DNA from: a virus
Strand: one strand, 5' to 3'
Virus record (IMG/VR): IMGVR_UViG_3300022699_000293
Location: 1 to 64,000 of that record
DNA: 64,000 nucleotides
A program made the position numbers and the translations under genes. Positions 10,805-55,194 of this stretch are shown here, in pieces (position 1 is the first letter of the stretch; each line of letters begins with the position of its first letter). The notes under the pieces were generated by a model, which saw only the letters and a list, made by a program, of their open reading frames with translations, ran no database searches and was not told where the DNA came from.

Positions 10805-11809
10805 ATGTCTACGTACTATGACCAAACATGCGATCCCGGATATTCTTACTTACGTGTGCTTGTTGAACGTTACCCCAAATTAGGGGAGTTTACGAAAACA
10901 GCGAATATTGATGAAAATGAATTTTCGCAATTACCTGATTCAGCGTTTGCTTGGTCTAGTGAACGTCGGTATCCCATACATACAAAAGAACATGCAGCTC
11001 TTTCATTAGGATATCAAAAATTAGCTAACGCAAAACTTCCTATGGAAGTGGAGCAGAAGTTAAAAACTGCTGCACAAGTTTATGGAATTTACGAAGAATT
11101 ATATGAAGAGAATGTTCCAAAAGTGGCAGAAAATTCGACATACATATTCCCAGAAAAAAAGAGGTTTATGATTAAAACAGCGGAAGATATTAAATTAGCT
11201 GAACGTCGTTTACGAGAAATTTATCGGCAATTATCTGTAGAAGACCGTGCAGAAGGATTTCAACGCTTACACAAATATGCAAAACAATTTGGAGTTACCT
11301 TACATCCTTCTACCGAAAAACTTGCTGGATTTACGCTTACAAGTACGCAACGTTTGCGTGATTGGCTAGATGCGCGACAAGAAGTAACTCGAGGACAAGT
11401 TTTTAGTAAGGCATTTGAAAAAATTTCTAGCACTTTAGAAGGCGTAGCTCCTGAATTTAAAGATTCAGACATACAAGTATCTTTAGTTAAGGCGATACAT
11501 ACTTTAGACAAAGAAGCAGGTTTAGAAAAACTTTATGGTGATAAGTTACCAGACCCTATCCAAACAGTTTTTAATACGGAGAAGCGTGCTGAAGATTCTG
11601 TAGAAATAGGTACAGGTTTTTTAGCGGATAAAGGAAAATTATCTGCTGTACCTTTATCGTTTTGGGAAGATGTGTTAGGTAAAGACGTAGTTGCTGAAAT
11701 TTCTCCGGATAATGAAACTGTGGATTTGGATATGTTAATGCAAATACTTCCAACGTTACCAGACGACTTAAAAGCTATCGTACAAAAACAATTAGCTGCT
11801 TATTTTTGA
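10805..11809 (+). CDS. putative head-associated protein with two DUF6582-like repeats and many K-x-A motifs
   Basis: AFAWSSERRYPIHTKEHA and YIFPEKKRFMIKTAEDI; KTAN, KLAN, KVAE, KTAE, KLAG, KEAG. Confidence 0.55.
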   Translation: MSTYYDQTCDPGYSYLRVLVERYPKLGEFTKTANIDENEFSQLPDSAFAWSSERRYPIHTKEHAALSLGYQKLANAKLPMEVEQKLKTAAQVYGIYEELYEENVPKVAENSTYIFPEKKRFMIKTAEDIKLAERRLREIYRQLSVEDRAEGFQRLHKYAKQFGVTLHPSTEKLAGFTLTSTQRLRDWLDARQEVTRGQVFSKAFEKISSTLEGVAPEFKDSDIQVSLVKAIHTLDKEAGLEKLYGDKLPDPIQTVFNTEKRAEDSVEIGTGFLADKGKLSAVPLSFWEDVLGKDVVAEISPDNETVDLDMLMQILPTLPDDLKAIVQKQLAAYF

Positions 11810-14166: not shown

Positions 14167-14186
14167 TTGCGTGTTACCTTTCGTTT

Positions 14187-31950: not shown

Positions 31951-32003
31951 GAAATTTACCTTACACTTTGTTGAAGGTTGGATGGTTACAGGAGAGTAAG
32001 TAC

Positions 32004-34483: not shown

Positions 34484-34555
34484 TCTTCTTTTACCAAAAT
34501 GTCTTTTCGAATCTGAAAGAATGTTCTATACTTGAACCGTTCAGAAGGAGAGCAA

Positions 34556-40507: not shown

Positions 40508-40508
40508 T

Positions 40509-42305
40509 ATGACTACACAAACTTTTGGGCGATACTTACTTAACCAACATATTCCTAAAGATTATCAATTGTCGGGAGAATCTGGGAAAAAAGAATTACG
40601 TACCAAAATGAACGCATTGGCAAAAAAAGATCCGGTGGCTTATGTGAAAACAATTACAGATCTTAAGCGTGAAGGTGATTTCTTAGCTACAATGTCGGGA
40701 CTTTCTGTGGGCTTGGATGATATTTCACCGGCACCGACACGCGATGAAGTATTGAAACCTTTGGTATCTGCTTTTAATCGCGCACAAACAGATAAACAAA
40801 GACGGCGTATTGCCGAACAAGCACAGGAAAAATTACTCAGTACTGTATCCAAACATCCAGGATCCATGACACAACAAGTAAAAAGTGGGGCTCGAGGAAA
40901 ACCTGTACAGTATATGAAAATTGTCGCATCTCCTGCTGCAGCTAGAGATTCTTACGGATATACAGAACCTTGGTTGATTACTCGGTCATATGCCGAAGGT
41001 TTACGCCCTTCTGATTATTGGGTTGCGGGTAACGAAGCTATCTTAGACACTATCAAAAGCACTGTTTCAGTGTCTGAACCAGGGGAATTGACTAAAGTCC
41101 TTATGAGTAATATGGCAGATACGCTTGTAATTGAAATTGATTGCGGCACACATAATGGTATTTCCTTAAATGTTAGTGACTCTAATATTTTAGACAGGTA
41201 CTTGGCTCGAGATACCGGACGCTTTAAGCGTAATACTTTAATTACATCACAAGTACAAACGGCTTTAAAAAAAGCAGGAAAACAAAAAATCCTGGTACGT
41301 TCTCCTATGACTTGTGAGTCTGATGATGGAGTTTGTCAGAAATGCCAAGGGTTGGATGAGAAAGGTAATCCTCAAGAATTGGGTGTGAACGTTGGTGTGC
41401 GTGCAGCTTCTGCGTTAGGGGAACCTTTAAGTCAATTTGCCTTGGATGCTAAGCACGGAGTACGTACGGCTAAAGGAGATCGTGCTAGATTGCAAGGAGT
41501 TTCTGGCTTTCGTCAAATAATAGAATCGCCACAACAATTTTTAAACAAAGCAACTCTTGCGGAACACGGCGGGAATGTAGATAAGATTGAAACTGCTCCT
41601 CAGGGAGGTCATTTCGTATACGTGAATGCTAAAAAACATTTTGTACCTCCTAATTTACAAGTAACAGCAAAAAAGGGGGATTCCATAGAACCAGGAGATT
41701 CTCTTAGTGAAGGCATTCCCAAACCTGATGAAATAGTTCGTTACAAAGGACTCGGTGCAGGACGGCAGTATCTTGTAAATACTTTGCGTGATTTGTATGC
41801 TAATCAAGGACGAGACTTAGATCAGAGACATTTTGAATTATTAGCAAAGAACGAATTGAACCATGTGCGCGTTTTAGAAGATCCAGGTAACAATTTTTTA
41901 AAAGGAGACGTGGTATCTTATAATGCTCTTCGATCTACATTAGCTAAACAATCAAAAGAAATACCTATTAACGAGTCGTTAGGGCAAGTATTAGGAAAAC
42001 CTTACTTTCATTTTTCTGTAGGTCAGCGTATTACTCCAGCAGTTCTTCACTATTTAAAGAAAGAAGGTTTGAAATCTGTACTCATTGCTTCAAAAGCACC
42101 TAATGTAGAATTTATTATGAAACCTGCAACACGCGCACCCTTGTTAAACCCTGATTGGATGGCTCGATTAGGTCACAGGTACTTAAAAACAACTCTAAAG
42201 GAAGCTGCTCATTTTGGGGATATTTCTAATTTACAAGGTACCCACCCTGTTCCTGCTTACGCTGCTGGCGTAAACTTTGGTCAGGGAAAACAAGGACGCT
42301 ATTAG
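40509..42305 (+). CDS. rpoC: RNA polymerase beta' C-terminal half
   Basis: TFGR, SGARG, SYAEGL.P, DT.....EPGELTK, DCGT, VRSP.TC...VCQKC.G, VGV.AA..LGEP.SQ, HFELL. Confidence 0.9.
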   Translation: MTTQTFGRYLLNQHIPKDYQLSGESGKKELRTKMNALAKKDPVAYVKTITDLKREGDFLATMSGLSVGLDDISPAPTRDEVLKPLVSAFNRAQTDKQRRRIAEQAQEKLLSTVSKHPGSMTQQVKSGARGKPVQYMKIVASPAAARDSYGYTEPWLITRSYAEGLRPSDYWVAGNEAILDTIKSTVSVSEPGELTKVLMSNMADTLVIEIDCGTHNGISLNVSDSNILDRYLARDTGRFKRNTLITSQVQTALKKAGKQKILVRSPMTCESDDGVCQKCQGLDEKGNPQELGVNVGVRAASALGEPLSQFALDAKHGVRTAKGDRARLQGVSGFRQIIESPQQFLNKATLAEHGGNVDKIETAPQGGHFVYVNAKKHFVPPNLQVTAKKGDSIEPGDSLSEGIPKPDEIVRYKGLGAGRQYLVNTLRDLYANQGRDLDQRHFELLAKNELNHVRVLEDPGNNFLKGDVVSYNALRSTLAKQSKEIPINESLGQVLGKPYFHFSVGQRITPAVLHYLKKEGLKSVLIASKAPNVEFIMKPATRAPLLNPDWMARLGHRYLKTTLKEAAHFGDISNLQGTHPVPAYAAGVNFGQGKQGRY

Positions 42306-42312
42306 GAATAAA

Positions 42313-42816
42313 ATGGATTACGATTTTTATAAGTTAGGATGGGATGCAGCACTTGTAGACTTAGGCTTATGTAAAGAAGCTGCGTGGCCTAAAAGTTTAG
42401 CACGTGTGGGGAAATTTTTAAAAAGTAAGGTTCCTTCTAAAGCAGGTGTAAAAAAATTTTTTATAGGCAGTCCTAGACGTTTTATGCATGAATTTCGCAG
42501 TAAAAAATTATTGCAACCTGGAAGTACTTTGCGTGAGGGTTACAGAGCACGCAGTCCTCTGGAAAAAGCGCTGCTTTACGGTTTTCCATTGTACGAGGGA
42601 GGCCGTATTTTAACAGGAGACCCTGGACAAAGAGCTGAAAATATAGGAGGATTGCTGGGAGGTATGACTCTTGGTTTGGGTGCGTGGGGGCCTTCAGGTA
42701 TGTTAGGCTCCATAGCTGCAGGTAGCTTGGGAGACTATTTAGGAAGAGGACTTGCCCGAACAGCTAAACATTCTTTGGGAGTAACCCCCGACGTAACGAA
42801 TATATACAAAAAATAA
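42313..42816 (+). CDS. basic glycine-zipper protein with N-terminal tag; putative head cargo/ejection protein
   Basis: FYKLGWDAALVDLGLCKEAA followed by GxxxG-rich hydrophobic helices. Confidence 0.55.
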   Translation: MDYDFYKLGWDAALVDLGLCKEAAWPKSLARVGKFLKSKVPSKAGVKKFFIGSPRRFMHEFRSKKLLQPGSTLREGYRARSPLEKALLYGFPLYEGGRILTGDPGQRAENIGGLLGGMTLGLGAWGPSGMLGSIAAGSLGDYLGRGLARTAKHSLGVTPDVTNIYKK

Positions 42817-42825
42817 AATTAAATC

Positions 42826-42854
42826 TTGGTAATTTTCACCGAATGCCATATACT
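42826..42854 (+). promoter_or_regulatory. sigma70-like promoter
   Basis: TTGGTA-17 nt-TATACT, then GGAGG RBS and ATG 42883. Confidence 0.45.
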
Positions 42855-42882
42855 TGGCGTGAACACTTTGGAGGTAAATAAA

Positions 42883-43326
42883 ATGGATACAGCAACAGCT
42901 AACGCATTAATCAAAGCCGCTTATGCCGAAGGCGTGAAACAAGCATTAACTGAGCGTGGATTAGACGAAAAAACAGCGTCTATTCGAAGTGAAGTGTTTA
43001 CAGAAGAAAAATTTGCCGGTATTGCAGATGTCGGACAAGCTATTCGAAGCGGTCTTGGTCGCGCTGGGCAAGCTGTAGGCGGGGCTGCTAGCCGTGCTGG
43101 GCAAGCTGTAGGCGGGGCTGCTAGCCGTGCTGGGCAAGCTGTAGGCGGGGCTGCTAGGTCTGCAAAAGAAACCGCAAGCATCCCTATTGAAAATTTGAAG
43201 CTTCTACGTGAAACCAATCCGGAAGCCTTTAATGCTCTTATGGGTGGTGGTATCATCGGTGGTGGTGCAGGTTTAGGTGCTGGAATTGGTGGGACGTTGG
43301 GTACTCAAGCTCTTTTAGAAGATTGA
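42883..43326 (+). CDS. Gly/Ala-rich protein with 11-aa repeats and glycine zipper; putative head cargo
   Basis: AYAEGVKQALTERGLDEKTA; RAGQAVGGAAS-type unit about 3x; C-terminal GGGIIGGGAGLGAGIGG. Confidence 0.6.
   Translation: MDTATANALIKAAYAEGVKQALTERGLDEKTASIRSEVFTEEKFAGIADVGQAIRSGLGRAGQAVGGAASRAGQAVGGAASRAGQAVGGAARSAKETASIPIENLKLLRETNPEAFNALMGGGIIGGGAGLGAGIGGTLGTQALLED
43063..43157 (+). repeat. 33-bp perfect tandem repeat, ~2.9 copies
   Basis: Unit GCTGGGCAAGCTGTAGGCGGGGCTGCTAGCCGT. Confidence 0.95.
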
Positions 43327-43358
43327 GTTTTTAAAAAAAGCAACCGGGAGAAAACACC

Positions 43359-44381
43359 ATGGGATTGTTCAAACGTGCACATGTAAGGGGCATCAATCAT
43401 GAATTGGTACGACAAGGAATGATTGGATGGCCTTCTGAAAAAATTGCTGAAGAAGCAACTGATGTCATAGCCGACGAACTTGCAGAAGAAGAAATACCTG
43501 AAGTTAGCGGTGACGAAGGTTTGTCTGCTGAAGAAGCAGCAGCTATCATTGATCAATTGGTCGAAGTAGCAGAAGCTATTGCAGAAAAAACCGGACAAGT
43601 ACATGATGATAACTTGTCTAAGATGGCTGCTTCAGTGAATTATGAAACAGCAGCATCAGCGCATGCTACGTCTTTGTTGCAAAAAGCAGCAGCCGAGGCA
43701 GGTACTGATGTTACAGGGGATGGAAGATTTCAGGAAACTATGATGGATGGGGGCATGGGGCATATTGATGCTCGAAAAGATCCTTCATCGGAAAAAGTTG
43801 GTCCTCAAGGTACTAGTACTTTAGATACTTCTCCTGGAGAGGTTGGAGCACAAACACCCCAACCCGAAACTATCGGTCCGGCAGAAGAAGTTAGTTCAGA
43901 AGTTTCTAAACTTTCGTCACGTATTGAAAAGTTAAATGACCTTCTGAACAAGCAGTCCAGTACCGACCCAGGGTCAGGAAATACAGGTACTCCTGCGCGA
44001 AAAGAACCTAAGGATAACCAAGAAATGTCGGGTGTAGCTCCGGCTCAAGGAAAAACTACACAACCTAAGGGTCCTCTAATGGGTTCGCAACAACCACAAC
44101 CACGCGCAGAAAGCCCTGCTACTCCTGGTGAAGTAGCTAAACTGTCTTCTTTGCTTCAAAATGCCCTTAATAAGTTGTCTGGTGAAGTGCCTCCTGAGTT
44201 GAAAGAAAACGCAGAAGATATGAAACAACAAGAGGCTAAGGAAGAAAAGGCAAAGCAAGAGGGTAAAAAACCTCCTAAAGAAGAAAAAGACGATAAAGCT
44301 GATTCTGAAAAAAGCGAAGAAGAGAAAAAAGCTCAGTTCGCGCACGCGTTACAAATTTTACAGAACTATGCAGGAAGCTGA
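43359..44381 (+). CDS. acidic, Pro/Gly-rich putative scaffold/internal head protein
   Basis: Low complexity; internal repeat EVSKLSS/EVAKLSS; K-x-A/S motifs. Confidence 0.55.
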   Translation: MGLFKRAHVRGINHELVRQGMIGWPSEKIAEEATDVIADELAEEEIPEVSGDEGLSAEEAAAIIDQLVEVAEAIAEKTGQVHDDNLSKMAASVNYETAASAHATSLLQKAAAEAGTDVTGDGRFQETMMDGGMGHIDARKDPSSEKVGPQGTSTLDTSPGEVGAQTPQPETIGPAEEVSSEVSKLSSRIEKLNDLLNKQSSTDPGSGNTGTPARKEPKDNQEMSGVAPAQGKTTQPKGPLMGSQQPQPRAESPATPGEVAKLSSLLQNALNKLSGEVPPELKENAEDMKQQEAKEEKAKQEGKKPPKEEKDDKADSEKSEEEKKAQFAHALQILQNYAGS

Positions 44382-44460
44382 AAATCTTCCTTTCCTATCT
44401 TCGAATTCAACGGTATAATTTAAATCAAGAATATAAACCCTTTGGAAGGGAGAGATACCT

Positions 44461-47076
44461 ATGCCTATGATTACGCCCCAAGCACAACAGGGTATTCCAG
44501 CTGCGCCTGCAGCAGAACAAGCTGAGCAGATGCTTAAAGAGCGTTTTTCACAAACAGCTTATAGTGTACTGTTCTCTAAATTTCCTGATCTGGCGCAAAA
44601 TGTTGTGACTTTCAAAATTTTGGAAACTGACGGAGAAAAAGGTAATGGGGTAGGGGCATTCATAATTTTACAGGATCAACTTCCCTTTTATATTCCTGTT
44701 GTTTTGGTGGATGGGCAACTGAAACCGTTAGAAATGTTTTATTATAAGCCTTTAAATATTTTCTTGCCTTTAAACAAAAAATGGATTGACGAAATTGGAA
44801 AGATGACTCTTGAAGAAATGGGAGAATCTGAGAACGCACCGGATGTTGTACCGAAAGATATGAGTGTGCGTAATTTAGTTTTACCTCCAATGACGACAGG
44901 GAGGTTTGGGTACGCGAGTGTTTCTGAAGAAAATTTAGAACACGGTGTAAATTCAATGATCAAAGCAGCGGAAGATCATTCCTTGGATACCCATCCCCAA
45001 TTTTTAAATATTCTTCAAGAAGGAAATCGTTTATTACTAGATGGCGTAAAAATAGCTTTTGAGCAACATCCTCAATTGTTGCAAAAATTAGCTTCTGTTT
45101 ACGGTGTAAAAGAATTAATACAAGCATTTAATAAAGGATACGCCAAAGCAGAACAAACAGAAAAGATTGCAGAAAAACACGAACCTGAAAACCCTGCTTT
45201 AAAAGTACTTACGATAGACGCGTCTCCAGAAGAGTTACAAGAATCTTTTGGGGATTCAGCGAAGATTGCTTTTCAAAATATTTTAAAACATGGTTACGAT
45301 GCTGCTGATAACCGAGATAAAAATGATCTGAACCGTGTCGTAAAAGTAGAAGGAGAACGTTTTCTACAGGAACCAGGACCTGAAGGAGGCTGGTACCGTC
45401 TTTATTTTGTGGATACGAATCCTGAAATTTACTACGTAATTCCCTGGCCTGTAGAATGTACAGGAGAAACAGGATTTGTAGAAAATTCAAAACAAAGACC
45501 TATAAAATATCTTGCGATACGTAAAGATACACAAATAGCCTTTGTCGTATCTCAATTGATGGGCGAGCCTGTACACTTAATGGATAAAACAATTACGAAA
45601 TCTCCTCTGTACAAAATTTTGACAGAAACTTCAAAAAACTCTACTAAACCTAAACCAGATGTTTACGGATGTTTTATAGTACCTTGTGACAAAGGTGCTC
45701 AGGCTACGGCTCCTACATGGATAGAACAAGCTATTTCCGACAATGGAAAACAACGTTACATTTCAGCATATGGAGATGTTACATATATCCTTGATGACGA
45801 TCCTACACGAAAATATATACAAAGAGTACCACCGGCAACGGAAGACAGGTATACAGATTTAATATTTCTTCCAGCAAATGCTAAATGGATTCCTTTAGGA
45901 TCTTTTTCTAGAGATACAAAAGCTCCTGAACTAAAGTATGAACGTAAGCGAAAAGTTGAAAGTAAGCAACGAAGACATTCTATCATTCGGGATCCTCGTT
46001 TAGTAACTCGCTGGTTAGATGCTAAATTACAAAAAGAAGGTGCTCAAGTTATTAATGTTCGAAGTGATGGTTCTAGTTTCTGGAGAATAGAAGATGATTC
46101 CCTATCATATCCTTTTAAAAATGCTTTGGAGAAAGTAGCTTTACAATACCATATAAGTGTACCCGAAGCCGAAGAAGTCTTAAAAGAAGCTCAACAGTAT
46201 GGGCGTGCTCCCGTGCGTTTAGTTAAAGGTGGTAATGTATTGGAAAATTTTTTTGAAAACATTGGCAAAGAAGCACAAGCACCAATGCCTATAGCTACCC
46301 AACAAATGCAACAAATACCTGCTGGAACTATGCCACCGGGTGGGATGTTACCTCCTGCAGGAGGTCAACAGCAGCAACCAGCTGTAGACCCAACAGATTT
46401 AGCTATTACAGAAGCTATACAAAATCTACAACAACAAAACCAATTGCAAACGCAAGAAATGCAAGCACAGGCTGAACAATTACAGCAAGCTACACAGCAA
46501 CAAGCACAACAAACACAGCAGTTAGTTGGTGTTTTACAAGGGATACAACAAAGGTCAGCAGAGATCGGACAAGCTACAGGCGGAATGATTCCTCCAGAAG
46601 CTATGGAAGCTCCTGCAGCTGCTGCTGAAATGTTAGCACCTACTCCACCTCCAGAGAGCGTACCTCCGCCAATGCCGATAATGGATGAAGACACTGAATC
46701 GGTTACACCCGAAATGGTGGCGCAACAAATTAATCCATTTTTAGTTGATCAAGCTGAAGAGTTACAAGATAACCAAATATTCGATACAGCTGCCATCTCC
46801 ATGTTGGCAACGTCGCCAATTTTACAAAACATTGTTTCTATTTATGTTCCTAATATGGAAAAATGTTTAGATAATTTAGGAAGAGTTTTACTAACTCTAT
46901 GGCTAACTGAGGAAGAAACTAAAAAAGCTATAGGTGATGAGGCATTTATTTCTTTAGAAGATAAATTACGAGCTGTATTCAAATCTTTAGGAGACATAAT
47001 TATTAACTTGAGTCAAAACGCAATTAGTACTAGCCCTGAAATGCAAGCACAGCAAGGGCCTGCTACTGGGGTATAA
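44461..47076 (+). CDS. large putative internal head protein (871 aa) with Gln/Pro-rich region
   Basis: Long ORF in the head module; K-x-A motifs; TATAAT at 44414 upstream. Confidence 0.6.
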   Translation: MPMITPQAQQGIPAAPAAEQAEQMLKERFSQTAYSVLFSKFPDLAQNVVTFKILETDGEKGNGVGAFIILQDQLPFYIPVVLVDGQLKPLEMFYYKPLNIFLPLNKKWIDEIGKMTLEEMGESENAPDVVPKDMSVRNLVLPPMTTGRFGYASVSEENLEHGVNSMIKAAEDHSLDTHPQFLNILQEGNRLLLDGVKIAFEQHPQLLQKLASVYGVKELIQAFNKGYAKAEQTEKIAEKHEPENPALKVLTIDASPEELQESFGDSAKIAFQNILKHGYDAADNRDKNDLNRVVKVEGERFLQEPGPEGGWYRLYFVDTNPEIYYVIPWPVECTGETGFVENSKQRPIKYLAIRKDTQIAFVVSQLMGEPVHLMDKTITKSPLYKILTETSKNSTKPKPDVYGCFIVPCDKGAQATAPTWIEQAISDNGKQRYISAYGDVTYILDDDPTRKYIQRVPPATEDRYTDLIFLPANAKWIPLGSFSRDTKAPELKYERKRKVESKQRRHSIIRDPRLVTRWLDAKLQKEGAQVINVRSDGSSFWRIEDDSLSYPFKNALEKVALQYHISVPEAEEVLKEAQQYGRAPVRLVKGGNVLENFFENIGKEAQAPMPIATQQMQQIPAGTMPPGGMLPPAGGQQQQPAVDPTDLAITEAIQNLQQQNQLQTQEMQAQAEQLQQATQQQAQQTQQLVGVLQGIQQRSAEIGQATGGMIPPEAMEAPAAAAEMLAPTPPPESVPPPMPIMDEDTESVTPEMVAQQINPFLVDQAEELQDNQIFDTAAISMLATSPILQNIVSIYVPNMEKCLDNLGRVLLTLWLTEEETKKAIGDEAFISLEDKLRAVFKSLGDIIINLSQNAISTSPEMQAQQGPATGV

Positions 47077-47080
47077 TTTA

Positions 47081-47794
47081 ATGCATGTACTACACACTCC
47101 AGATCCATGTTGGCGTTGGAACATGCTGCGCAAGTGTGTGGAAGAGGGTGCACCTCCTAACGAACCTTATTTAAAAGAGTTTTATACTATAATTGTCCAA
47201 CAACAGGGAGATACAGAGAAACAATATGCCTTAGATTTAGTTCGTAAAAGACTACACCGAGAAATTTTGCAAGCTTTTTTTCTTTGCAACTCTAAATTAG
47301 AATTAATTTCAGATACTTTAAAAATAGAAATAGATGTATTAAATCATGTAAAATTACTGGTTGCGGATACCTCAGAATTTAGGAATCGTTTAGAACATTT
47401 TAGCTATGTTCAAGAGTTACTAGAAAACCCTAACGCATTAACGGATTCGGGTAAAAAGTATCTGTTTATGGCAATGACACACGGTCCCGAGTTTATGGCA
47501 AATCACTTCAACATTGGTGATGAAAAATTTGTAGTTACGCCTAAAAAGTTAATAGAGAAATTTATACAAACAGCGTATCATTTAGGTGCGAATGCACAAG
47601 GAAATTCTGTGACAGCTGATGTAACAAAACAAGCACGTTTGTGGATGTTGGACGGTGTGAAGTATTTGGAAGCGTATAAAGATGCCGAAGGTGGAGGTGA
47701 TGTAGACGATGATCCGCTAATGGCTATAGAAGAACGTAAACGTACGATTTCTGTCACAGATTTAGATGCTAGTCCTGAAGATATCATTCATTGA
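47081..47794 (+). CDS. hypothetical protein (237 aa)
   Basis: ORF within the operon; no family recognised. Confidence 0.65.
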   Translation: MHVLHTPDPCWRWNMLRKCVEEGAPPNEPYLKEFYTIIVQQQGDTEKQYALDLVRKRLHREILQAFFLCNSKLELISDTLKIEIDVLNHVKLLVADTSEFRNRLEHFSYVQELLENPNALTDSGKKYLFMAMTHGPEFMANHFNIGDEKFVVTPKKLIEKFIQTAYHLGANAQGNSVTADVTKQARLWMLDGVKYLEAYKDAEGGGDVDDDPLMAIEERKRTISVTDLDASPEDIIH

Positions 47795-47815
47795 TCGGGG
47801 AGATAGAGGACAACA

Positions 47816-48643
47816 ATGTTAACGAAAAATGATTTTGAAAAAGCTGCTGAAACAATAGCTAAACAATACATGCAAACTGAAGGAAATAAGACAATAAATC
47901 AGTTAGCAAAAAAAATAGCATCTGATAACAATCTGAATCCTGATCAAATTAGAACTATGGTTCGACTAGCTAACGTGTCTGTGTTTGGCAAGCTATTTCA
48001 AACCAAGACGGGAGAAGATAAGAACATCCAATTTGAAACTGGTGATCCAGAAGTGGTGATTGACGCTCTTTATGATGATACGAAAACTTTGAAACTTGCT
48101 AGCAACGCTGACACGTATGATCAGACTTTAGATTTTTACGGAGATATGTATACTGTAGAGCAAGCTGAAAAAACGGCAGCTGCTGAAGAAGATCCTGATG
48201 AAACAAAGCCTATCAAGTTAGGATATTCTAAAAAAGAATTGGTGATGCAATTAAAACGAGCATCTGACCGCTTTGATATACGTAGCAAACAAGCAGAACA
48301 ACGATGGAAAACATGTATGGAAACTGCTACATCAATGTTTAATAAAACTGCAGGAATGGAAAAAACTTCTCATTTTTCTAAATTTGAAAAAGATGTCTTA
48401 GCAGCAAATACCGAATTAATACCAGAAGTCCAAGCATTGCGGGTAATGTCCATGCGTGGTAAAGTTGCATCACCTACAAAGGAAACTCTTGAAAAAATCG
48501 CTAATACGCATGTAGCTAATTTACAAGGGGATACTAAGGAAATTTTTGAACACTTAAAACAGGCTGCTGCGGCTCGTTTGGACTACCAAGAATGTCGGGA
48601 ATGCTTAACAAAAATAGATGATAGTATTTTGAAATTGTCATGA
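47816..48643 (+). CDS. putative internal head protein rich in K-x-A motifs
   Basis: KAAE, KIAS, KLAS, KTAA, KRAS, KTAG, KVAS, KIAN, KQAA. Confidence 0.6.
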   Translation: MLTKNDFEKAAETIAKQYMQTEGNKTINQLAKKIASDNNLNPDQIRTMVRLANVSVFGKLFQTKTGEDKNIQFETGDPEVVIDALYDDTKTLKLASNADTYDQTLDFYGDMYTVEQAEKTAAAEEDPDETKPIKLGYSKKELVMQLKRASDRFDIRSKQAEQRWKTCMETATSMFNKTAGMEKTSHFSKFEKDVLAANTELIPEVQALRVMSMRGKVASPTKETLEKIANTHVANLQGDTKEIFEHLKQAAAARLDYQECRECLTKIDDSILKLS

Positions 48644-49413
48644 ATTTTGAAACTGTAGAAAAATTAGCAACTCCTGGAACAGGAAAAACGGCTAAATCTT
48701 TGCTAAGCCGAATAAAAAATTTGTACCGAACACACCCAAAAAAAATGATGGCAGGGACTGTTGCAGGAGTAGGCGGAGCAGGAATGTTAGCAGCACTGCC
48801 TAAAGCACGACGAGAAGGACAAAGATTGGAGGCTGAAATGGCTGAGGCGTATACAGGAGCTCCGGGAGGTAAATATGTTTTTGCGGCACTAGAAAAGTTC
48901 GCAGAACGCAAACAATATTTAAGTGAAAAAATAGCGATGGTAAAGAAAGCTTATAACTTTGCACAACCTGCTTCTAATTATCCCGGGAGACGGGAACGTC
49001 CATCTTTTGCTGAAAACGTTGAAGGAGGCGTTGCAAAAGCGTTAGGTGGGGGGATAGCTCAAGCAGGTATTTCTGCGTTGGGTAAGCTTATTAGCGGTAC
49101 TGCAAAATCTCTTAAAGAGCGCATGGTTCTAGACAAGAAAAGAGAAGCTATTGTAGACCACATTATGGAGCATGACCCCATCGTTTCTGTTCAGGAAGAA
49201 CTTAACCCGGGATCTACTATTCAAGCATATTCGACCATGGTCAAGTTTGCTCCTCGCTTAAGTACGGACCCAAACGTAGTAACATCATTTTTACGTGAAG
49301 CTTCTCAATCTGAAGGTGGGATTAATCCCTTGACGGTTCAACAATTAGCTAAGACTGAATCAGCCATTAACCAGATTTACGGCCCCTCCGGAGGCGGCGG
49401 TAAAGGTCGATAA
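48640..49413 (+). CDS. putative head cargo protein with glycine-rich hydrophobic helices
   Basis: EKLA, EKFA, EKIA; AGTVAGVGGAGMLAAL; ALGGGIAQAGISALG. Confidence 0.55.
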   Translation: MNFETVEKLATPGTGKTAKSLLSRIKNLYRTHPKKMMAGTVAGVGGAGMLAALPKARREGQRLEAEMAEAYTGAPGGKYVFAALEKFAERKQYLSEKIAMVKKAYNFAQPASNYPGRRERPSFAENVEGGVAKALGGGIAQAGISALGKLISGTAKSLKERMVLDKKREAIVDHIMEHDPIVSVQEELNPGSTIQAYSTMVKFAPRLSTDPNVVTSFLREASQSEGGINPLTVQQLAKTESAINQIYGPSGGGGKGR

Positions 49414-49428
49414 AGAAGGAGATACGTC

Positions 49429-49647
49429 ATGGACGAATTTAAATTATTAGACACGTTATTGCCTGCTAATTTAAAATTAGCGATGCTGACGGGGAATGCT
49501 GACAAGATTGCAACAGCATGTACAGGTTTAGACAAATTTGAATTTAGAGATGTGGCACAGTATGTCGGTACTAAACTTGCCGAACATGGACGGCATTATC
49601 AAAAAATAAGTCGTGGATTGTTAGCACTTGAAAAGTTAAAAGGTTAA
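49429..49647 (+). CDS. small hypothetical head-module protein
   Basis: AAGGAG RBS; KLAM, KIAT, KLAE. Confidence 0.65.
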   Translation: MDEFKLLDTLLPANLKLAMLTGNADKIATACTGLDKFEFRDVAQYVGTKLAEHGRHYQKISRGLLALEKLKG

Positions 49648-49652
49648 TCACC

Positions 49653-50027
49653 ATGCAACGTAAATTTGCAAAAGACGTATCTTGTGCTGTACATGAATTA
49701 GGGCAGTTAGAAACTATTGCAGTTAAAACAGCATCAGAAAATGCCAGCGCAGAAGCACAACGAACTATCTCAATGGCAGCTAGCGGTATTTACGACGTAA
49801 TACAACAAAAAGCTGCGGAAGAATGTGCTGGTGATTTTTGTCAATGTGTCGACAAAGTAGCAACAACTTTACAAAAGCCCAAAATGTCTGTAGACGCTAA
49901 AACTAAATTAGCGGCAGCTGTTGCTGTAGATACTGTATTAACGGAACAACCGCAAACAGAGAAAATTGCTCGTGCTCGGGCTTACGGTCGAGAATTTATA
50001 GCAGAGTTTCTGAGAGAAATTATTTAA
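49653..50027 (+). CDS. hypothetical head-module protein
   Basis: KFAK, KTAS, KAAE, KVAT, KLAA, KIAR. Confidence 0.65.
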   Translation: MQRKFAKDVSCAVHELGQLETIAVKTASENASAEAQRTISMAASGIYDVIQQKAAEECAGDFCQCVDKVATTLQKPKMSVDAKTKLAAAVAVDTVLTEQPQTEKIARARAYGREFIAEFLREII

Positions 50028-50028
50028 A

Positions 50029-52110
50029 ATGCTTTCAAAAATATTACATTTAGATTCGCATTTCCCTACAGGCGAGTTAACAGTACAGCCTGTATTTTTG
50101 TGGGCTAATGGAAAAGCATGTCTTGAAAATATAAGCAAGTATGCAAGTGTGGGTCACGATTACTTCAAAACAATTGAACCTATTCCCGGACACTCCGTTG
50201 TTTATGTTCTTGCTGTTAGTGGTTGGGAAACTTACGGAGAAAATAAAAATGGGGACGGTTTTCCTGAATTCCCATATAAAGAAGATTCTTCTCCACCATG
50301 GATTGCTCCTGATGAAGTTCTTCCGTTACATTATAAATCTTTTGAAAAACACGGAAATAACTTTCGACATCATCAAAATAAAGATCCTAAAAAAGCTGTA
50401 GGGAAAGTTATAAAATCTTTTTGGAATCCTACAATGCACCGAGTTGAACTTCTAATTGATTTAGAAGATGAAAAAGCTCCAGATTTAGCGGAAAGAATTG
50501 CTTCCGGTGAATTCCCTCCTGTTAGTATGGGAACTCGAGTTAGGTACGATGTTTGTAACATTTGCGGTAATCGCGCACCTACTCGTGCTCAATATTGTGA
50601 CCATCTTAAATTTCAAATGAAGCAGACACTACCAGACGGTAGAACTATTTGTGCTTTAAACCCTAATCCTAAATTTTTTGATATTAGTTGGGTTTTTAAA
50701 CCAGCAGACCCGACAGCGTATATGCTAAAAAAAGTAGCTGATAACGAACCTTATGAGTTGTCAGGTGCAGCTGCAGGAGAGTACTTAGACAAGATGGCGG
50801 AACGAAAATTAGCCGCTAAAAAATTAGCTGTAATTGACAAACTTATTCAAGGTTATCCTCTAGACGCTAAATGCGAAGGATTTAATCCCTCCGATATACA
50901 TAACATTCAAGCTATAAGAGATCTTGTTCTATCCGTAGTAGACGACATTCCTGAATTCTCAGACGATACTTTGAAAGAATTGTCGATCCACCCTCTTAAC
51001 AAAATTTTTTCTACTTTGTTTTCAGGAGGAATTTCTCTTTCTACTCCGGAGTTAGTAAAAATAATCGTCTATAAAAATTATCCTAATACGGAAATAGGGG
51101 ATGATATTTTAGACAAGTGCGTTATTATGCAACAACCTTTAAGGGAATTTATTGAAGATTGTCCCCAAATTATGGATCAGTTTGAAAAAGATGGGTACTT
51201 TGACTTAGGTATCGATAAAGTAGATACCAAAATAGCTTCAATTGTTGATCCTTATTTTGAAAAACGTTCTGGTATTCCTCAATATTTAAAACGACAATTT
51301 GTACCTTCAAAATATCGAGATGTGCCTGAGCCTAAAACAACACCTCTTACCGTTAGTGATCCAGTTACAGGAACTCGATACCAAACTACACGAGGTGCTG
51401 CTCTAACGGCACATGACGAAATAGCTAAAAAGAATTTAATGAAAGTTTTGGGGGGTGCTGCTTTGTTGGGCGGTGCTTATAAGTTACTTGGAACAGGTTT
51501 AGAGCATATAGGGAAACGAAAATTAAAACCACTATTAGGGTTATCTTTAGCAGGTTTAGGTGTTAGTCAGTGGCCTGATATGGGTCCGCATTACAGGACA
51601 GACCAAGGCGTTCCTGTGCCGACATTGACTGAAATGGTACCTAAGCAGGCAGCTATAACATCTTCTTTAGCATTGCCTGCTTTAGGTACTTTAGCAGCTA
51701 TGACTGCTTTGGGCTTAGACTATAAATCTCGATTACGGCGAGGAGAACCTATAGGGCATCCTGCATTACCTTTATCTCGACGACTATTGGATAGGGTTGA
51801 ACGTTTTACTTATGAGCACCCTGTAGTTACTGCTATTGGTGGAACAGCTGCCTTGAAAGGTCTTGGAAAAATTCCTCTTGTGCAGAAAGGTATGGGTTAT
51901 GCCGGACGTGCAGGAGAATATGCAAAAAGAAAAGCTCAAGATGCTGCTTCAAATGTGCGCGATGCTTTTCGTACTATGGCTCGGGAACGTGTAAAAGTAT
52001 CTGAACTTCTCGAACCAGATTTACCAACACCTACAGGTACAGTAGAATTGCCCCCTATAGATTTGGATAAAATAGCTACAAAAATTGGTTATCTAATTTG
52101 GGAAGGCTAA
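50029..52110 (+). CDS. putative prohead maturation protease (HK97/assemblin-like) with C-terminal extension
   Basis: N.NGDGF, FRHH.N.D....VG (His), VSMG (Ser), CNIC..CDH Zn insert, FFDISWV..PAD; upstream of the scaffold/capsid genes. Confidence 0.65.
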   Translation: MLSKILHLDSHFPTGELTVQPVFLWANGKACLENISKYASVGHDYFKTIEPIPGHSVVYVLAVSGWETYGENKNGDGFPEFPYKEDSSPPWIAPDEVLPLHYKSFEKHGNNFRHHQNKDPKKAVGKVIKSFWNPTMHRVELLIDLEDEKAPDLAERIASGEFPPVSMGTRVRYDVCNICGNRAPTRAQYCDHLKFQMKQTLPDGRTICALNPNPKFFDISWVFKPADPTAYMLKKVADNEPYELSGAAAGEYLDKMAERKLAAKKLAVIDKLIQGYPLDAKCEGFNPSDIHNIQAIRDLVLSVVDDIPEFSDDTLKELSIHPLNKIFSTLFSGGISLSTPELVKIIVYKNYPNTEIGDDILDKCVIMQQPLREFIEDCPQIMDQFEKDGYFDLGIDKVDTKIASIVDPYFEKRSGIPQYLKRQFVPSKYRDVPEPKTTPLTVSDPVTGTRYQTTRGAALTAHDEIAKKNLMKVLGGAALLGGAYKLLGTGLEHIGKRKLKPLLGLSLAGLGVSQWPDMGPHYRTDQGVPVPTLTEMVPKQAAITSSLALPALGTLAAMTALGLDYKSRLRRGEPIGHPALPLSRRLLDRVERFTYEHPVVTAIGGTAALKGLGKIPLVQKGMGYAGRAGEYAKRKAQDAASNVRDAFRTMARERVKVSELLEPDLPTPTGTVELPPIDLDKIATKIGYLIWEG

Positions 52111-52113
52111 ACC

Positions 52114-52142
52114 TTGTAAAAATAAAAAACTTACCCTATCAT
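52114..52142 (+). promoter_or_regulatory. sigma70-like promoter for the scaffold/capsid operon
   Basis: TTGTAA-17 nt-TATCAT upstream of GAGG RBS and ATG 52175. Confidence 0.45.
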
Positions 52143-52174
52143 TAGGGCATCGTAACCTGAAGCGAGGTACTAAA

Positions 52175-52936
52175 ATGGAACTGGAAGCAATCATCAATGA
52201 ACTGAAAAAAGATCCGGAGACTGAGAAAGTCGCCAATGACAACAGTTCAACAACCCCTGCTCAATCCCAGGACAAAAGTGCGGAAGAATTGAGTGATGCG
52301 TTAAAGGATGCCCTCAAAACGGGGGAACCAAATAAGCAAGCTTCTGCAGAAGAAGAAAATCCTGTGGAAGCTTTGATGAAAATGGCGAGTGAAATGTCTA
52401 GCATGGACAAAGAAGCAGAAGAAGCCACTGTACGAAATTTAGGTATTGCTTTTGCAGATAGTGCACACCGCCGATGGAACGAGTTAAATGAAAAAGTAGG
52501 TAACGTTTTAGATCCTCTGGCTGAAGCAGTGAAAATTGCAGCTATGCAGGGTTACGAGGATACTAATACCGCTTTAGGAAAACAAGCAACACTTCAGCAA
52601 GGTTACGAAGATACTGATCTTGCATTAACAAAACAAGCAGCACTCCAACAAGGTTATAGTGATGCTAACGCTACTTTAGATGGCTACCAAAAAACAGCGG
52701 CGGGACAGACTGACGTGTCTGACGAACAAGTATTAGAGCAACTCGTAAAGCATGCAGAAGCTGGTGACGCTGAAGCTCAGCAATACTTACAAAAAATTGC
52801 AGAAGAATATGAAGCTGGTAGTCAAGCTGCATTGCAAATGGCTCACAAGGTAGCATCTGAAGAATTTTTAAAGGGTGCGGCAGAAGTTCAGGTTTTGCTT
52901 AACGCTCTGCGAGAACAACAACAGCAACAACAATAA
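52175..52936 (+). CDS. putative scaffolding protein with three 17-aa repeats
   Basis: Acidic and helical; GYED/GYSD...KQA repeats at 51-bp period; more than 10 K-x-A motifs. Confidence 0.6.
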   Translation: MELEAIINELKKDPETEKVANDNSSTTPAQSQDKSAEELSDALKDALKTGEPNKQASAEEENPVEALMKMASEMSSMDKEAEEATVRNLGIAFADSAHRRWNELNEKVGNVLDPLAEAVKIAAMQGYEDTNTALGKQATLQQGYEDTDLALTKQAALQQGYSDANATLDGYQKTAAGQTDVSDEQVLEQLVKHAEAGDAEAQQYLQKIAEEYEAGSQAALQMAHKVASEEFLKGAAEVQVLLNALREQQQQQQ

Positions 52937-52937
52937 A

Positions 52938-53024
52938 ATGTACGATTCAAGTACCATAAAATTCTATACTGAATTGTACAAACAGGCATATGAGATTGCT
53001 GCTAAAAGGTTTAATACACTATGA
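52938..53024 (+). CDS. 28-aa mini-protein (absent from the ORF track)
   Basis: MYDSSTIKFYTELYKQAYEIAAKRFNTL*; fills the gap exactly, ATGA overlap with 53021. Confidence 0.5.
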   Translation: MYDSSTIKFYTELYKQAYEIAAKRFNTL

Positions 53025-53272
53025 AACGTGTACCTAATGTGCGAGAAGTTATGGACGCTGTTCAGACTGCTGTCCAAACATCTTCTCAAGAAAAATTGGC
53101 TGCTGACATAGATGCACCTTCTAATTTCGTTGTGGAAACATCACAACAATTAGAAAAATTGGCTAGAAAAATTAGACGTGGAAATTTTGCGCCAGTGACC
53201 TATAATGATGTTATGGAATTCGGCTCGTTTGTTAAAAAGGCAGTGAATCGTGAAAGCCACGGAACAACTTAA
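53021..53272 (+). CDS. small head-module protein
   Basis: EKLAA, EKLAR. Confidence 0.65.
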   Translation: MKRVPNVREVMDAVQTAVQTSSQEKLAADIDAPSNFVVETSQQLEKLARKIRRGNFAPVTYNDVMEFGSFVKKAVNRESHGTT

Positions 53273-53405
53273 AAAATTTGCTCAAGAACTTCGCGAAGTG
53301 GCGCAAGAAGTAGAGCAAGAAAAAATGCGCAAATGTGCGCAAATTCTTGTGGCGGCTCAAGGACTGTCAACTTTACAAACACGAATTACGGGAGATGTGG
53401 ATTAA
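53250..53405 (+). CDS. 51-aa helical protein (absent from the ORF track)
   Basis: GTG start; MKATEQLKKFAQELREVAQEVEQEKMRKCAQILVAAQGLSTLQTRITGDVD*; TAATG overlap with the next gene. Confidence 0.6.
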   Translation: MKATEQLKKFAQELREVAQEVEQEKMRKCAQILVAAQGLSTLQTRITGDVD

Positions 53406-53755
53406 TGCAAGTCGATTCTACCATGCTGTCTAAAATTGCTTCAGTCATTGAAAAGACTGCAGAGTATATTGAACGGCGCGAAGCACAAACGGTCACAGAA
53501 CAACAAGAAAAGCGTGCAGAAGAGGCTAAACGCATCGCAGATAAGTTGTCTTCTCTTACGGGTGAAGACTTAGATAACAGTATTACTGAAAAATTAGCAG
53601 AAATAGATCCTAGGATTGTCAACGTTCTTGATAGGATTACGGGAGACGATGTTGAAATCGACTCTATGGGTGGCCCTGGTACTGCCAGGGAAAAAGTAGC
53701 ATCGAGCATAAGATCCGCTAATGATGAGTTTGTTGAGTGGGTCACGGGACCGTAA
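53405..53755 (+). CDS. scaffold-like small protein
   Basis: Start at ATG 53405 (MQVDST); KIAS, KTAE, KRAE, KLAE, KVAS. Confidence 0.65.
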   Translation: MQVDSTMLSKIASVIEKTAEYIERREAQTVTEQQEKRAEEAKRIADKLSSLTGEDLDNSITEKLAEIDPRIVNVLDRITGDDVEIDSMGGPGTAREKVASSIRSANDEFVEWVTGP

Positions 53756-53770
53756 ACGGAGGAAACTGAA

Positions 53771-54268
53771 ATGAGTCTACTGAACAACAATTTCGATATC
53801 ATCACAAAGGACCCGCATCCTAATGCCTTGGCGAGTCTTATGGTTATTTTGGATGTTTCTGGTGCTCCTGGCCCAGCACCGTCCGGAACACCTACTCCAG
53901 GTACGATTGAACCTGGGCATATCGTCATGATGGACGCAACAGGCGAAGCTGTTTTGGGTGACCGTGCTGCCTGGACTACAGCTACCCCCATTATGTATAT
54001 GGCTGCGGTAGATGGTGATATGGATATGGACGGTGCATTTTTACACCGTATTACATGTCTCCAAGGTGGTTTTGAGATGACCACAGAACAATACGTTGCT
54101 GCTGCGTACACTCCAGGTCAACCTTTGACTGTAGGTACAGGCGCAAACGTAGGTCTGTTAGAAGGGTTGACGTTAGCAGGACAACCTTTATATGGTTTTG
54201 TAGGACCGAGAGGCGTAGGGTCTGACGGTACGTTAGATGTAATTGTACCTCAGAGTAATGGCCGCTAA
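53771..54268 (+). CDS. putative capsid decoration/cement protein
   Basis: Gly/Pro/Thr-rich beta-type protein directly before the capsid gene; YTPGQPLTVG motif; GGAGG RBS. Confidence 0.55.
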   Translation: MSLLNNNFDIITKDPHPNALASLMVILDVSGAPGPAPSGTPTPGTIEPGHIVMMDATGEAVLGDRAAWTTATPIMYMAAVDGDMDMDGAFLHRITCLQGGFEMTTEQYVAAAYTPGQPLTVGTGANVGLLEGLTLAGQPLYGFVGPRGVGSDGTLDVIVPQSNGR

Positions 54269-54282
54269 TAAGGAGGGCAGCC

Positions 54283-55194
54283 ATGGATTATAACGTTGAA
54301 ACACCTGAAGCAAGCGCACAGCTTATTAATTCTAGTTTCGTACGGAAGCTCGAAGAAGGTCGTGTGAAGGAAGCCGCAGACCAGAGTACAGCTTTTATTC
54401 GCGAAAAGCTACGTCAAGAAGCTGCCGTCCGAGAATTAATGGCTCCGGAAGGTATTTCTGAAGAAGAAATCGACCGGGACGAAGACACGGACCAACCAAA
54501 GAAAATTATCGACAAAGAACCGGACTCGTACGCTACATTCGTACAGTTCCAAGGTTCTGGTCCGCGCACATGGTTTAAAGGACCCCGTTACGCTATTTAT
54601 TTTGGTAAGGTAGAATCTCAGCGCTTTACCAAGAATAAATGGGAATTAATGTCCTATACCAGCGACATTAGGAAGATTCTGTCTGACAATTCTGTAAAGG
54701 ACATGGCAGACGAGGAAGATTCCAAGTGGAATAATCTCGTAACCGACATCATTAACGGGAACCCGCTAGAACAACGTACGGCAGGACCATTTCAAAGTAC
54801 CACGTTTAAGCGTGCTATGCAGAAAATGATCGGTCGTCGGCGTCCTATCGGTAAGATGCTAATGACGAAATATCGTTATTTCGATGCTTTAGATCTTCCC
54901 GCTTTGAGCGTTGGTGATGATATTGCTACGCGTCATTTTGACGAGGGTATCGAAGCTTCTGAAAAGTTATGGGGTCTTCCAGTAGTAACTACTATCAAGG
55001 GAGACATCTACGACGAAAGTAAAGCGTGGATCTTTTCACCGCAAAAGCCTAATAACTATTTAGGGAACTTTTACCTTCTGCAAGATGCTACATTGTTTAT
55101 CAAGCAAGAAGCAGATGTCATCATGTTCTGGAGTTACGAAGCTCCGGGTATTGGAATAGGTAATCGTTTATCGATGCAAGAAATTCAGTTCTAA
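54283..55194 (+). CDS. major capsid protein (putative, HK97 fold)
   Basis: 303 aa, strong AAGGAGG RBS, follows protease/scaffold/decoration; KDMADEED, LWGLPVVTTIK, YEAPGIGIGN. Confidence 0.7.
   Translation: MDYNVETPEASAQLINSSFVRKLEEGRVKEAADQSTAFIREKLRQEAAVRELMAPEGISEEEIDRDEDTDQPKKIIDKEPDSYATFVQFQGSGPRTWFKGPRYAIYFGKVESQRFTKNKWELMSYTSDIRKILSDNSVKDMADEEDSKWNNLVTDIINGNPLEQRTAGPFQSTTFKRAMQKMIGRRRPIGKMLMTKYRYFDALDLPALSVGDDIATRHFDEGIEASEKLWGLPVVTTIKGDIYDESKAWIFSPQKPNNYLGNFYLLQDATLFIKQEADVIMFWSYEAPGIGIGNRLSMQEIQF

Follow-up and report, generated by a model that had tools for sequence, protein, structure and literature searches.

Lys-x-Ala as a candidate cut-site code of a prohead protease in the head module of an uncultured phage

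Which sequence does the prohead protease of a phage recognise when its presumed substrates match hardly any known protein family? This question is raised by the 87-kb phage contig IMGVR_UViG_3300022699_000293, of which positions 1-64,000 (the window) were analysed. The head module of this contig includes a gene at 50029 for a prohead serine protease polyprotein, and PHROG and Pfam searches were blank for almost all proteins of the module. A first-pass annotation of the DNA had described a recurrent Lys-x-Ala (K-x-A) triplet in these proteins and had proposed it as the recognition code of the 50029 enzyme. Our sequence-based analysis supports this proposal through the confinement of the motif to the head module, its presence at the edges of the protease fold, its recurrence in 48 of 51 related loci, a control with phage T4 and the fold itself. 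We put the probability at about 0.7 that K-x-A serves as cut-site code for the prohead protease that the phage itself encodes, namely the N-terminal domain of the 50029 product, and that the cut falls after the Ala; cleavage itself, the choice of bond and the order of events are what we infer. Open reading frames (ORFs) and their products are named by their first coordinate (Table 1).

The K-x-A motif in the head-module proteins

Per-protein counts of K-x-A were compared with 500 composition-preserving shuffles, and the pooled head set, which consists of the 12 ORFs at 42277-53755 (3618 amino acids, aa), was compared with 2000. The pooled proteins contain 78 K-x-A triplets where 27.4 are expected (z 10.7), and the highest count among the 2000 shuffles was 48. 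The recurrence described in the first-pass annotation is thus borne out by the shuffle check, and the counts that it gave as examples are right: 52175, for which more than 10 had been stated, has 14, 47816 has 10 and 49653 has 6. The statement that nearly every protein of the region carries the motif was too broad, in that most are enriched, but 42277, 43359 and 47081 are not individually so and 48640 is borderline. In an unbiased ranking of every residue pair with a gap of 0 to 4 (2000 pairs), K-x-A came first by a wide margin, the runner-up being QQ (z 6.4). The context of the motif in the head set is [LFM]-E-K-[ILTVQ]-A-[ESA]; K-x-A-[ESA] occurs 43 times (6.8 expected) and E-K-x-A 20 times (2.4 expected).

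The enriched proteins are rich in Ala, Glu and Lys, and an enrichment of this kind might simply follow from the amphipathic-helix or coiled-coil composition of such scaffolds, in which the Leu at −2, a hydrophobic residue at +1 and the Ala at +2 could share one face of a helix. However, the excess is found at the one-residue gap alone: in the 12 head ORFs, K and A at gaps 0, 2, 3 and 4 (KA, KxxA, KxxxA and KxxxxA) show no excess over expectation. This specificity rules out composition and helical periodicity as the cause. The physico-chemical equivalents R-x-A (13 versus 14.8 expected in the head set) and K-x-S (12 versus 14.9) are not enriched, and both were rejected as variants of the motif on these counts, including the K-x-S form that the first-pass annotation had counted in. 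As beta-branched T, V and I are moreover preferred in the middle position, and as the sites that border the protease fold are in non-helical surroundings, we consider a helical by-product very improbable.

The enrichment is localised to the head module around the protease gene. The remaining 42 ORFs of the window contain 74 K-x-A against 77.6 expected, the RNA polymerase region (34532-42305) is not enriched either (13 versus 9.5), and no enrichment was seen in the ORFs at 64-87 kb of the contig. Of the 12 head-module proteins, 10 have a K-x-A among residues 1-40, whereas this holds for 3 of the 41 other proteins (Fisher p 8e-7). Early sites of this kind occur in the capsid protein and in 10805, 58308 and 63184 as well. 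The portal, the capsid protein, the decoration-like protein, the sheath candidate and three downstream proteins together have 2 K-x-A against about 9 expected, which was noticed post hoc. The decoration protein 53771 and the 967-aa product of 60281, which had been described as nearly devoid of the motif, indeed have none. Among three proteins outside the head set that had been listed as rich in it, 10805 is so (10 versus 2.3), but 58308 and 63184 do not differ significantly from expectation.

The codes of Glu-specific proteases are flat in the head set, with [LI]xE at 51 versus 40.4 (z 1.8) and [SAG]xE at 69 versus 70.1 (z −0.2), in line with the earlier suggestion of a specificity unlike that of the Glu-type enzymes. 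As a positive control, the identical scan on T4 gp67, gp68, gp21 and gp22 ranked I-x-E first and L-x-E third. The scan thereby returns the known gp21 code, and the method can thus recover a genuine protease code.

The protease domain and the motif copies at its edges

The 50029 product matches a PHROG head maturation protease (E 2.7e-11). Its sequence relatives are found in Vibrio phages D69, D148 and D181, Salmonella phage Arash and Bacillus phage G, and further in Erwinia phage Alexandra, Gordonia phages and cluster C mycobacteriophages; for residues 1-260 there are 114 homologous clusters. The polyprotein consists of an N-terminal protease domain (approximately residues 40-237), which contains a Zn-ribbon insert, and a long C-terminal extension; the latter has helical segments, Gly-rich hydrophobic segments and conserved segments at its tail. 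Across an alignment of 46 homologues (33-83% identity), H115, S166, D218, S220 and D227 are invariant, and S166 and H115 are the putative catalytic Ser and His. The Zn-ribbon-like insert lies inside the fold (residues 176-192, 50554-50604), and its C176, C179, C190 and H192 reach at least 90% conservation in the same alignment. Two membrane-like Gly-rich hydrophobic segments occur in the C-terminal half (51400-52000); they are conserved in close relatives and missing from Arash and D69.

An AlphaFold2 model of the protease domain has a predicted local distance difference test (pLDDT) score of 83.7, with residues of about 40-237 folded. Residues 1-38 are mostly of low confidence (pLDDT below 50 at 1-8, 20-27 and 29-38), and the confidence falls again at 240-244. 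When the model was compared with 48,161 PDB chains by VIA-align, the best matches were the varicella-zoster virus protease (Z 10.3) and T4 gp21 (5JBL, Z 10.1), followed by others at Z 7; superposition on 5JBL gave a root-mean-square deviation of 2.7 Å over 128 residues at about 16% sequence identity. Foldseek against the PDB returned weak assemblin matches (E at least 0.007). According to the model, the N-terminal domain of 50029 has the T4 gp21/herpes assemblin fold.

The confidence bounds of the model place a conserved pair of K-x-A sites at the exact edges of this fold. K37-Y-A39 lies just before it and is a predicted N-terminal autoprocessing site, K37 and A39 being at least 90% conserved in the 46 homologues. 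K235-V-A237, at the C-terminal edge, is a predicted release site like the assemblin R-site; K235 and A237 are conserved to the same degree, the whole triplet is invariant in 6 orthologues including those of Arash and D69, and phage G gp19 has EKVAS at the equivalent place. A third copy, K681-I-A683, lies near the end of the polyprotein, ten residues short of its C-terminus, and is a candidate tail-release site, by analogy perhaps the counterpart of the assemblin M-site. It is conserved as DLDK[IV]A in two relatives (L003 and L007) and replaced by R-A-A in another (L009).

A motif that is restricted to head-interior proteins, frequently near their N-termini, could also serve uncleaved, as a docking or capsid-targeting signal through which scaffold and cargo bind the inner shell or each other and whose several copies provide avidity; a separate 14-residue tag next to the motif in three proteins (see below) fits such a role. 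Docking, however, accounts neither for the near-invariant copies that mark the exact edges of the catalytic fold on both sides nor for the 10 to 14 copies per scaffold-like protein, which mirror the multi-site degradation of T4 core proteins. It is in our view an unlikely explanation of the motif.

If the motif is instead cleaved by the 50029 protease, the substrate code in full would be [LFM]-E-K-[TVI]-A-[SEA], with Lys at P3, a free P2 at which beta-branched residues are preferred, Ala at P1, and Ser, Glu or Ala at P1'. Inside the assembled prohead, the enzyme would first release itself at K37-x-A39 and K235-V-A237. The N-terminal leaders of the head-module proteins would then be trimmed, and the scaffold-like and internal proteins would be cut at many sites, whereby the fragments would exit or be repositioned ahead of DNA packaging.

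Conservation and spread of the motif

The conservation of motif residues was quantified over eleven ortholog families. The Lys of K-x-A is conserved in 55% of cases compared to 33% for other Lys residues (p 6e-7), and the Ala in 64% compared to 38% for other Ala residues (p 8e-9), whereas the middle residue (34%) does not exceed the background of 36%. Whole K-x-A sites are kept in 49% of cases, and the KA, KxxA and KxxxA controls in 20-22%. These values point to selection that acts on K and A and not on the residue between them. In the alignments of the scaffold-like 52175 and of 53333, the K-x-A sites appear as conserved islands at 16-58% identity, and in the 53333 family they are conserved in 7 orthologues.

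Enrichment is likewise seen in the positional counterparts of the head proteins, both in four IMG/VR relatives (49-83% identity) and in Salmonella phage Arash and Vibrio phage D69, whose proteases share 35-37% identity with 50029. More than 560 related IMG/VR loci came up in a profile search, and the scan was applied to 51 that had full flanks and a protease identity of 39-77%. K-x-A ranked first among 400 one-gap pairs in 48 of these 51 loci, and second or third in the remaining three. In phage G and Mycobacterium phage Rabinovish, the enrichment in the head module is weak (z 3.2 and 3.1, respectively), and the K-x-A code may extend, weakly, to these two lineages. Phage G gp19 (L014, 11704-12606) has 8 K-x-A against 2.5 expected, including the EKVAS after its fold. 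Rabinovish gp94 (L095, 8767-12876) is a 1369-aa protein whose N-terminal part is the protease domain; K-H-A precedes the fold and K-T-A follows it.

It is conceivable that an enzyme other than the 50029 protease reads K-x-A, for instance a host protease or a lysine-modifying enzyme. Yet the motif co-varies with the protease family across Salmonella and Vibrio hosts and many metagenome sources, it is absent around the more distant protease of Erwinia phage Alexandra (where the surrounding K-x-A counts are at expectation), and it flanks the 50029 enzyme's own domain. Another reader of the motif is thus highly unlikely.

The 2307 K-x-A sites of the related IMG/VR loci were combined in a logo, in which the constraint is limited to positions −2 to +4. 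Upstream, L, F or M is found at −2 and E at −1; T, V and I are favoured in the middle position, where G, P and D are avoided. After the Ala, Ser is 3.3-fold enriched, followed by Glu and Ala, and Pro, Leu, Ile and Lys are depleted. The sequence does not fix the register within this range, and a protease that recognises K-x-A might cut another bond, for example after the Lys or one residue further on. We regard this as improbable in view of three observations. The proteases of T4, phiKZ and SPN3US cleave directly after a P3-x-P1 triplet (PMC5694885, PMC10052503), assemblins cut after their C-terminal Ala (PMC4498786), and the enrichment of Ser and depletion of Pro are located immediately after the Ala. 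A cut after Ala is accordingly an assignment by analogy with the register of the three phage enzymes, combined with the Ser preference that follows the Ala.

Several points weigh against K-x-A as the cut-site code. Cleavage at the motif has been observed neither in this phage nor in its relatives. The Arash virion proteomics, in which the virion proteins include the orthologues gp218 and gp220-226, consist of identifications alone and never mention protease or cleavage (PMC10585845). The scissile bond is assigned by analogy alone, and a sequence such as L-E-K-V-A-S-E is also compatible with an amphipathic helix. The K-x-A sites at K121 and K224 lie within the folded protease core and are probably uncut, so the motif by itself does not predict cleavage. 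Finally, the 51 loci share phylogeny and are hence not independent trials. A full-text literature search for K-x-A or Ala-P1 prohead proteases returned nothing relevant, published cleavage specificities of phage G gp19 or the Bixzunavirus proteases were not found in the literature searched, and the phage G multi-omics preprint does not give cleavage sites.

Individual genes, related systems and implications

Downstream of 50029, the scaffold-like gene 52175 is followed by the decoration gene 53771 and the capsid gene 54283, and the order of head-module genes around the protease is identical in Arash, D69, phage G and the IMG/VR loci. Between the portal gene and the rest of the head module lie the RNA polymerase and LigD-like genes. 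The product of 44461 was considered as an alternative portal and rejected, as it is not similar to the phage G portal and matches no PDB sequence. Its Arash orthologue, gp218, was detected in virions (PMC10585845). The ORF starts of 42277, 42826 and 53333 are probably too far upstream, judging from the overlap with the upstream gene and the N-termini of orthologues, and ATG codons at 42313, 42883 and 53405 are the likely starts. The positional counterparts of 47816 are also enriched for K-x-A in Arash (gp220, which has no BLAST match to it) and in D69 (0268, its best BLAST match at 28% identity). The 52175 protein contains an internal tandem repeat, GKQATLQQGYEDT / TKQAALQQGYSDA, with one K-Q-A per copy, and ends in poly-Gln; the repeat is absent from a 58%-identical relative.

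Table 1. Features of the window, with observed and expected numbers of K-x-A triplets.
Feature	Coordinates	Strand	K-x-A (observed versus expected)	Remarks
10805	10805..11809	+	10 versus 2.3 (z 5.8)	334 aa; outside head module
Large terminase	14124-15791			
Portal	31968-33743	+	0 versus 2.8	tblastn to Arash portal E 5e-85, to phage G gp14 portal E 2e-5
Multisubunit RNA polymerase and LigD-like gene	34.5-42.3 kb			
Head module	42.3-55.2 kb			last genes are decoration-like 53771 and the 303-aa capsid protein 54283
42277	42277..42816	+	not enriched	179-aa ORF, probable ATG 42313; N-terminal tag, then K33-E-A
N-terminal tag copies	42328-42369, 42922-42963, 43380-43421			
42826	42826..43326	+	4 versus 1.3	166 aa, Gly/Ala-rich; likely start M20 at 42883
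43359	43359..44381	+	5 versus 3.5 (not significant individually)	340 aa, acidic
44461	44461..47076	+	11 versus 4.6	871-aa head-module virion protein, orthologue of Arash gp218
47081	47081..47794	+	2 versus 1.1 (not enriched)	237-aa head-module protein
47816	47816..48643	+	10 versus 2.9	275-aa head protein; weak PHROG minor head protein match
48640	48640..49413	+	6 versus 2.7 (borderline, p 0.05)	257-aa head-module protein; E-K-x-A 3 versus 0.2
49653	49653..50027	+	6 versus 1.8	124 aa, Ala-rich; directly upstream of protease
50029	50029..52110	+	10 versus 4.3	693-aa prohead protease polyprotein
K37-Y-A39	50137..50145	+		predicted N-terminal autoprocessing site
K235-V-A237	50731..50739	+		predicted release site
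K681-I-A683	52069..52077	+		candidate tail-release site
52175	52175..52936	+	14 versus 3.1 (z 7.0)	253 aa, scaffold-like, acidic, Ala-rich
53021	53021..53272	+	3 versus 0.6	83 aa
53333	53333..53755	+	5 versus 0.6	140 aa, true start probably M25 at 53405; four sites are E-K-x-A
53771	53771..54268	+	0 versus 0.1	165 aa, decoration-like, single Lys; position matches phage G gp26
Major capsid protein	54283-55194			303 aa
K29-E30-A31	54367..54375	+		in major capsid protein; possible N-terminal maturation site
Further genes	downstream of head module	+		tail genes according to the first-pass annotation
58308	58308		2 versus 0.7 (not significant)	
60281	60281		0 versus 2.3	967 aa; 'sheath' in the first-pass annotation
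63184	63184		5 versus 2.3 (not significant)	

A 14-residue N-terminal tag, [YH]xxGxxx[AEL]LxxxG[LM], is common to the adjacent 42277, 42826 and 43359 (3 matches versus 0.09 expected by chance). K-x-A sites bracket each copy, for example K-A-A and K-T-A in 42826 and K5-R-A and K28-I-A in 43359. The tag has the appearance of a leader that targets proteins to the capsid and would then be cut out, and it resembles the T4 capsid-targeting leaders removed by gp21. In the LigD-like primase-polymerase/phosphoesterase (38918-40507), a terminal V-K-E-A followed by a near-match to the tag (YWNGFEETLQKLGM, approximately residues 420-445) suggests that this protein is packaged as head cargo. The RNA polymerase encoded at 34532-42305, which adjoins the head module, may by analogy be packaged in the virion as well, since its beta subunit was the most abundant protein detected in Arash virions (PMC10585845).

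In the major capsid protein, the K29-E30-A31 triplet is invariant in 7 orthologues, down to 40% identity. The 28 residues before K29 are likewise conserved, and phage G gp27 has GRVALAQ, which lacks the Lys, at the N-terminal position that corresponds by eye; for these two reasons cleavage of the capsid protein at this site is uncertain. The 10805 product is a candidate packaged or internal head protein, and a homologue search of the phage collection found none for it. For the sheath candidate 60281 there was neither a PHROG match nor a significant Pfam match, and for the plus-strand genes downstream of the head module no family matches were found in PHROG or Pfam.

The system around 50029 shares features with several characterised ones. 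The enzyme resembles T4 gp21 (5JBL) in its fold and in the location of its gene, which lies among scaffold and core genes and precedes the capsid gene. Further common features are the large number of sites in each core protein, the N-terminal leaders, predicted self-trimming and the P3-x-P1 architecture. The T4 sites, which occur in gp22, gp67, gp68, gp23, gp24 and internal proteins, are I/L-x-E, whereas here they would be Lys-x-Ala, and 50029 differs from gp21 by its Zn-ribbon insert and its 450-residue C-terminal extension. The giant-phage proteases phiKZ gp175 (S/A/G-x-E) and SPN3US gp245 (A-x-E) serve head interiors with many proteins, in large myoviruses that resemble this phage in their phage-encoded multisubunit RNA polymerase. 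Both undergo C-terminal auto-cleavage, and the SPN3US enzyme favours Ser at P1' (PMC5694885, PMC10052503). Characterised enzymes of this type cut after Glu, whereas the P1 residue proposed here is Ala. Phage G gp19 and Bixzunavirus Rabinovish gp94 are recognisable relatives at the sequence level. They have K-x-A on either side of the fold and the same Zn-ribbon insert as 50029, which also occurs in the proteases of cluster C mycobacteriophages but is lacking in T4 gp21. In phage G a decoration gene precedes that of a small capsid protein, as here, and gene order, size and the N-terminal resemblance seen by eye group the 303-aa capsid protein with phage G gp27 and not with T4 gp23.

The herpes assemblin/pUL26 system also has the fold in common with 50029, and its cleavage after Ala with Ser at P1' would be matched by the proposed P1 Ala and the Ser that is favoured after it. 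In pUL26, the R-site releases assemblin and the M-site near the C-terminus frees the scaffold, and mature pseudorabies virus assemblin ends in Ala (PMC4498786). Judged by sequence, 50029 has a similar layout, with a C-terminal extension, one site at the domain edge and one near the C-terminus. Assemblin differs in having Val or Leu at P3 instead of Lys, two to three sites instead of dozens over about ten separate proteins, and no Zn-ribbon insert, and 50029 belongs to a bacterial virus. That the Ala|Ser rule and the fusion layout with its release and near-C-terminal sites are shared with assemblins by descent is a tentative idea that we consider doubtful. In that case the ancestral specificity of the superfamily would survive in this clade (the more than 560 IMG/VR loci, Arash and the Vibrio phages, with the phage G and Bxz1 lineages as possible further members), and Glu would be the derived state of T4 and phiKZ. 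A non-Glu code would also enable these phages to evade host immune sensors that bait Glu-specific prohead proteases.

The characterised phage proteases of the gp21/gp175 type cut after glutamate (PMC5694885, PMC10052503), and a Lys-x-Ala rule, if true, would add to the fold a second class of specificity. Because assemblins likewise cut after Ala, the rule would also strengthen the link between phages and herpesviruses. A CBASS (cyclic oligonucleotide-based antiphage signalling system) sensor has been reported to detect T4 gp21 via a loop that contains L-x-E (PMC12991175), so that a changed code could alter which defences are triggered. Cultures exist of Salmonella phage Arash and of Vibrio phages D69, D148 and D181, in which the rule could be tested directly. 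If the rule holds, it would provide a simple sequence criterion that predicts head-interior or ejected cargo in hundreds of large uncultured phages and that locates the mature ends of their unannotated proteins.

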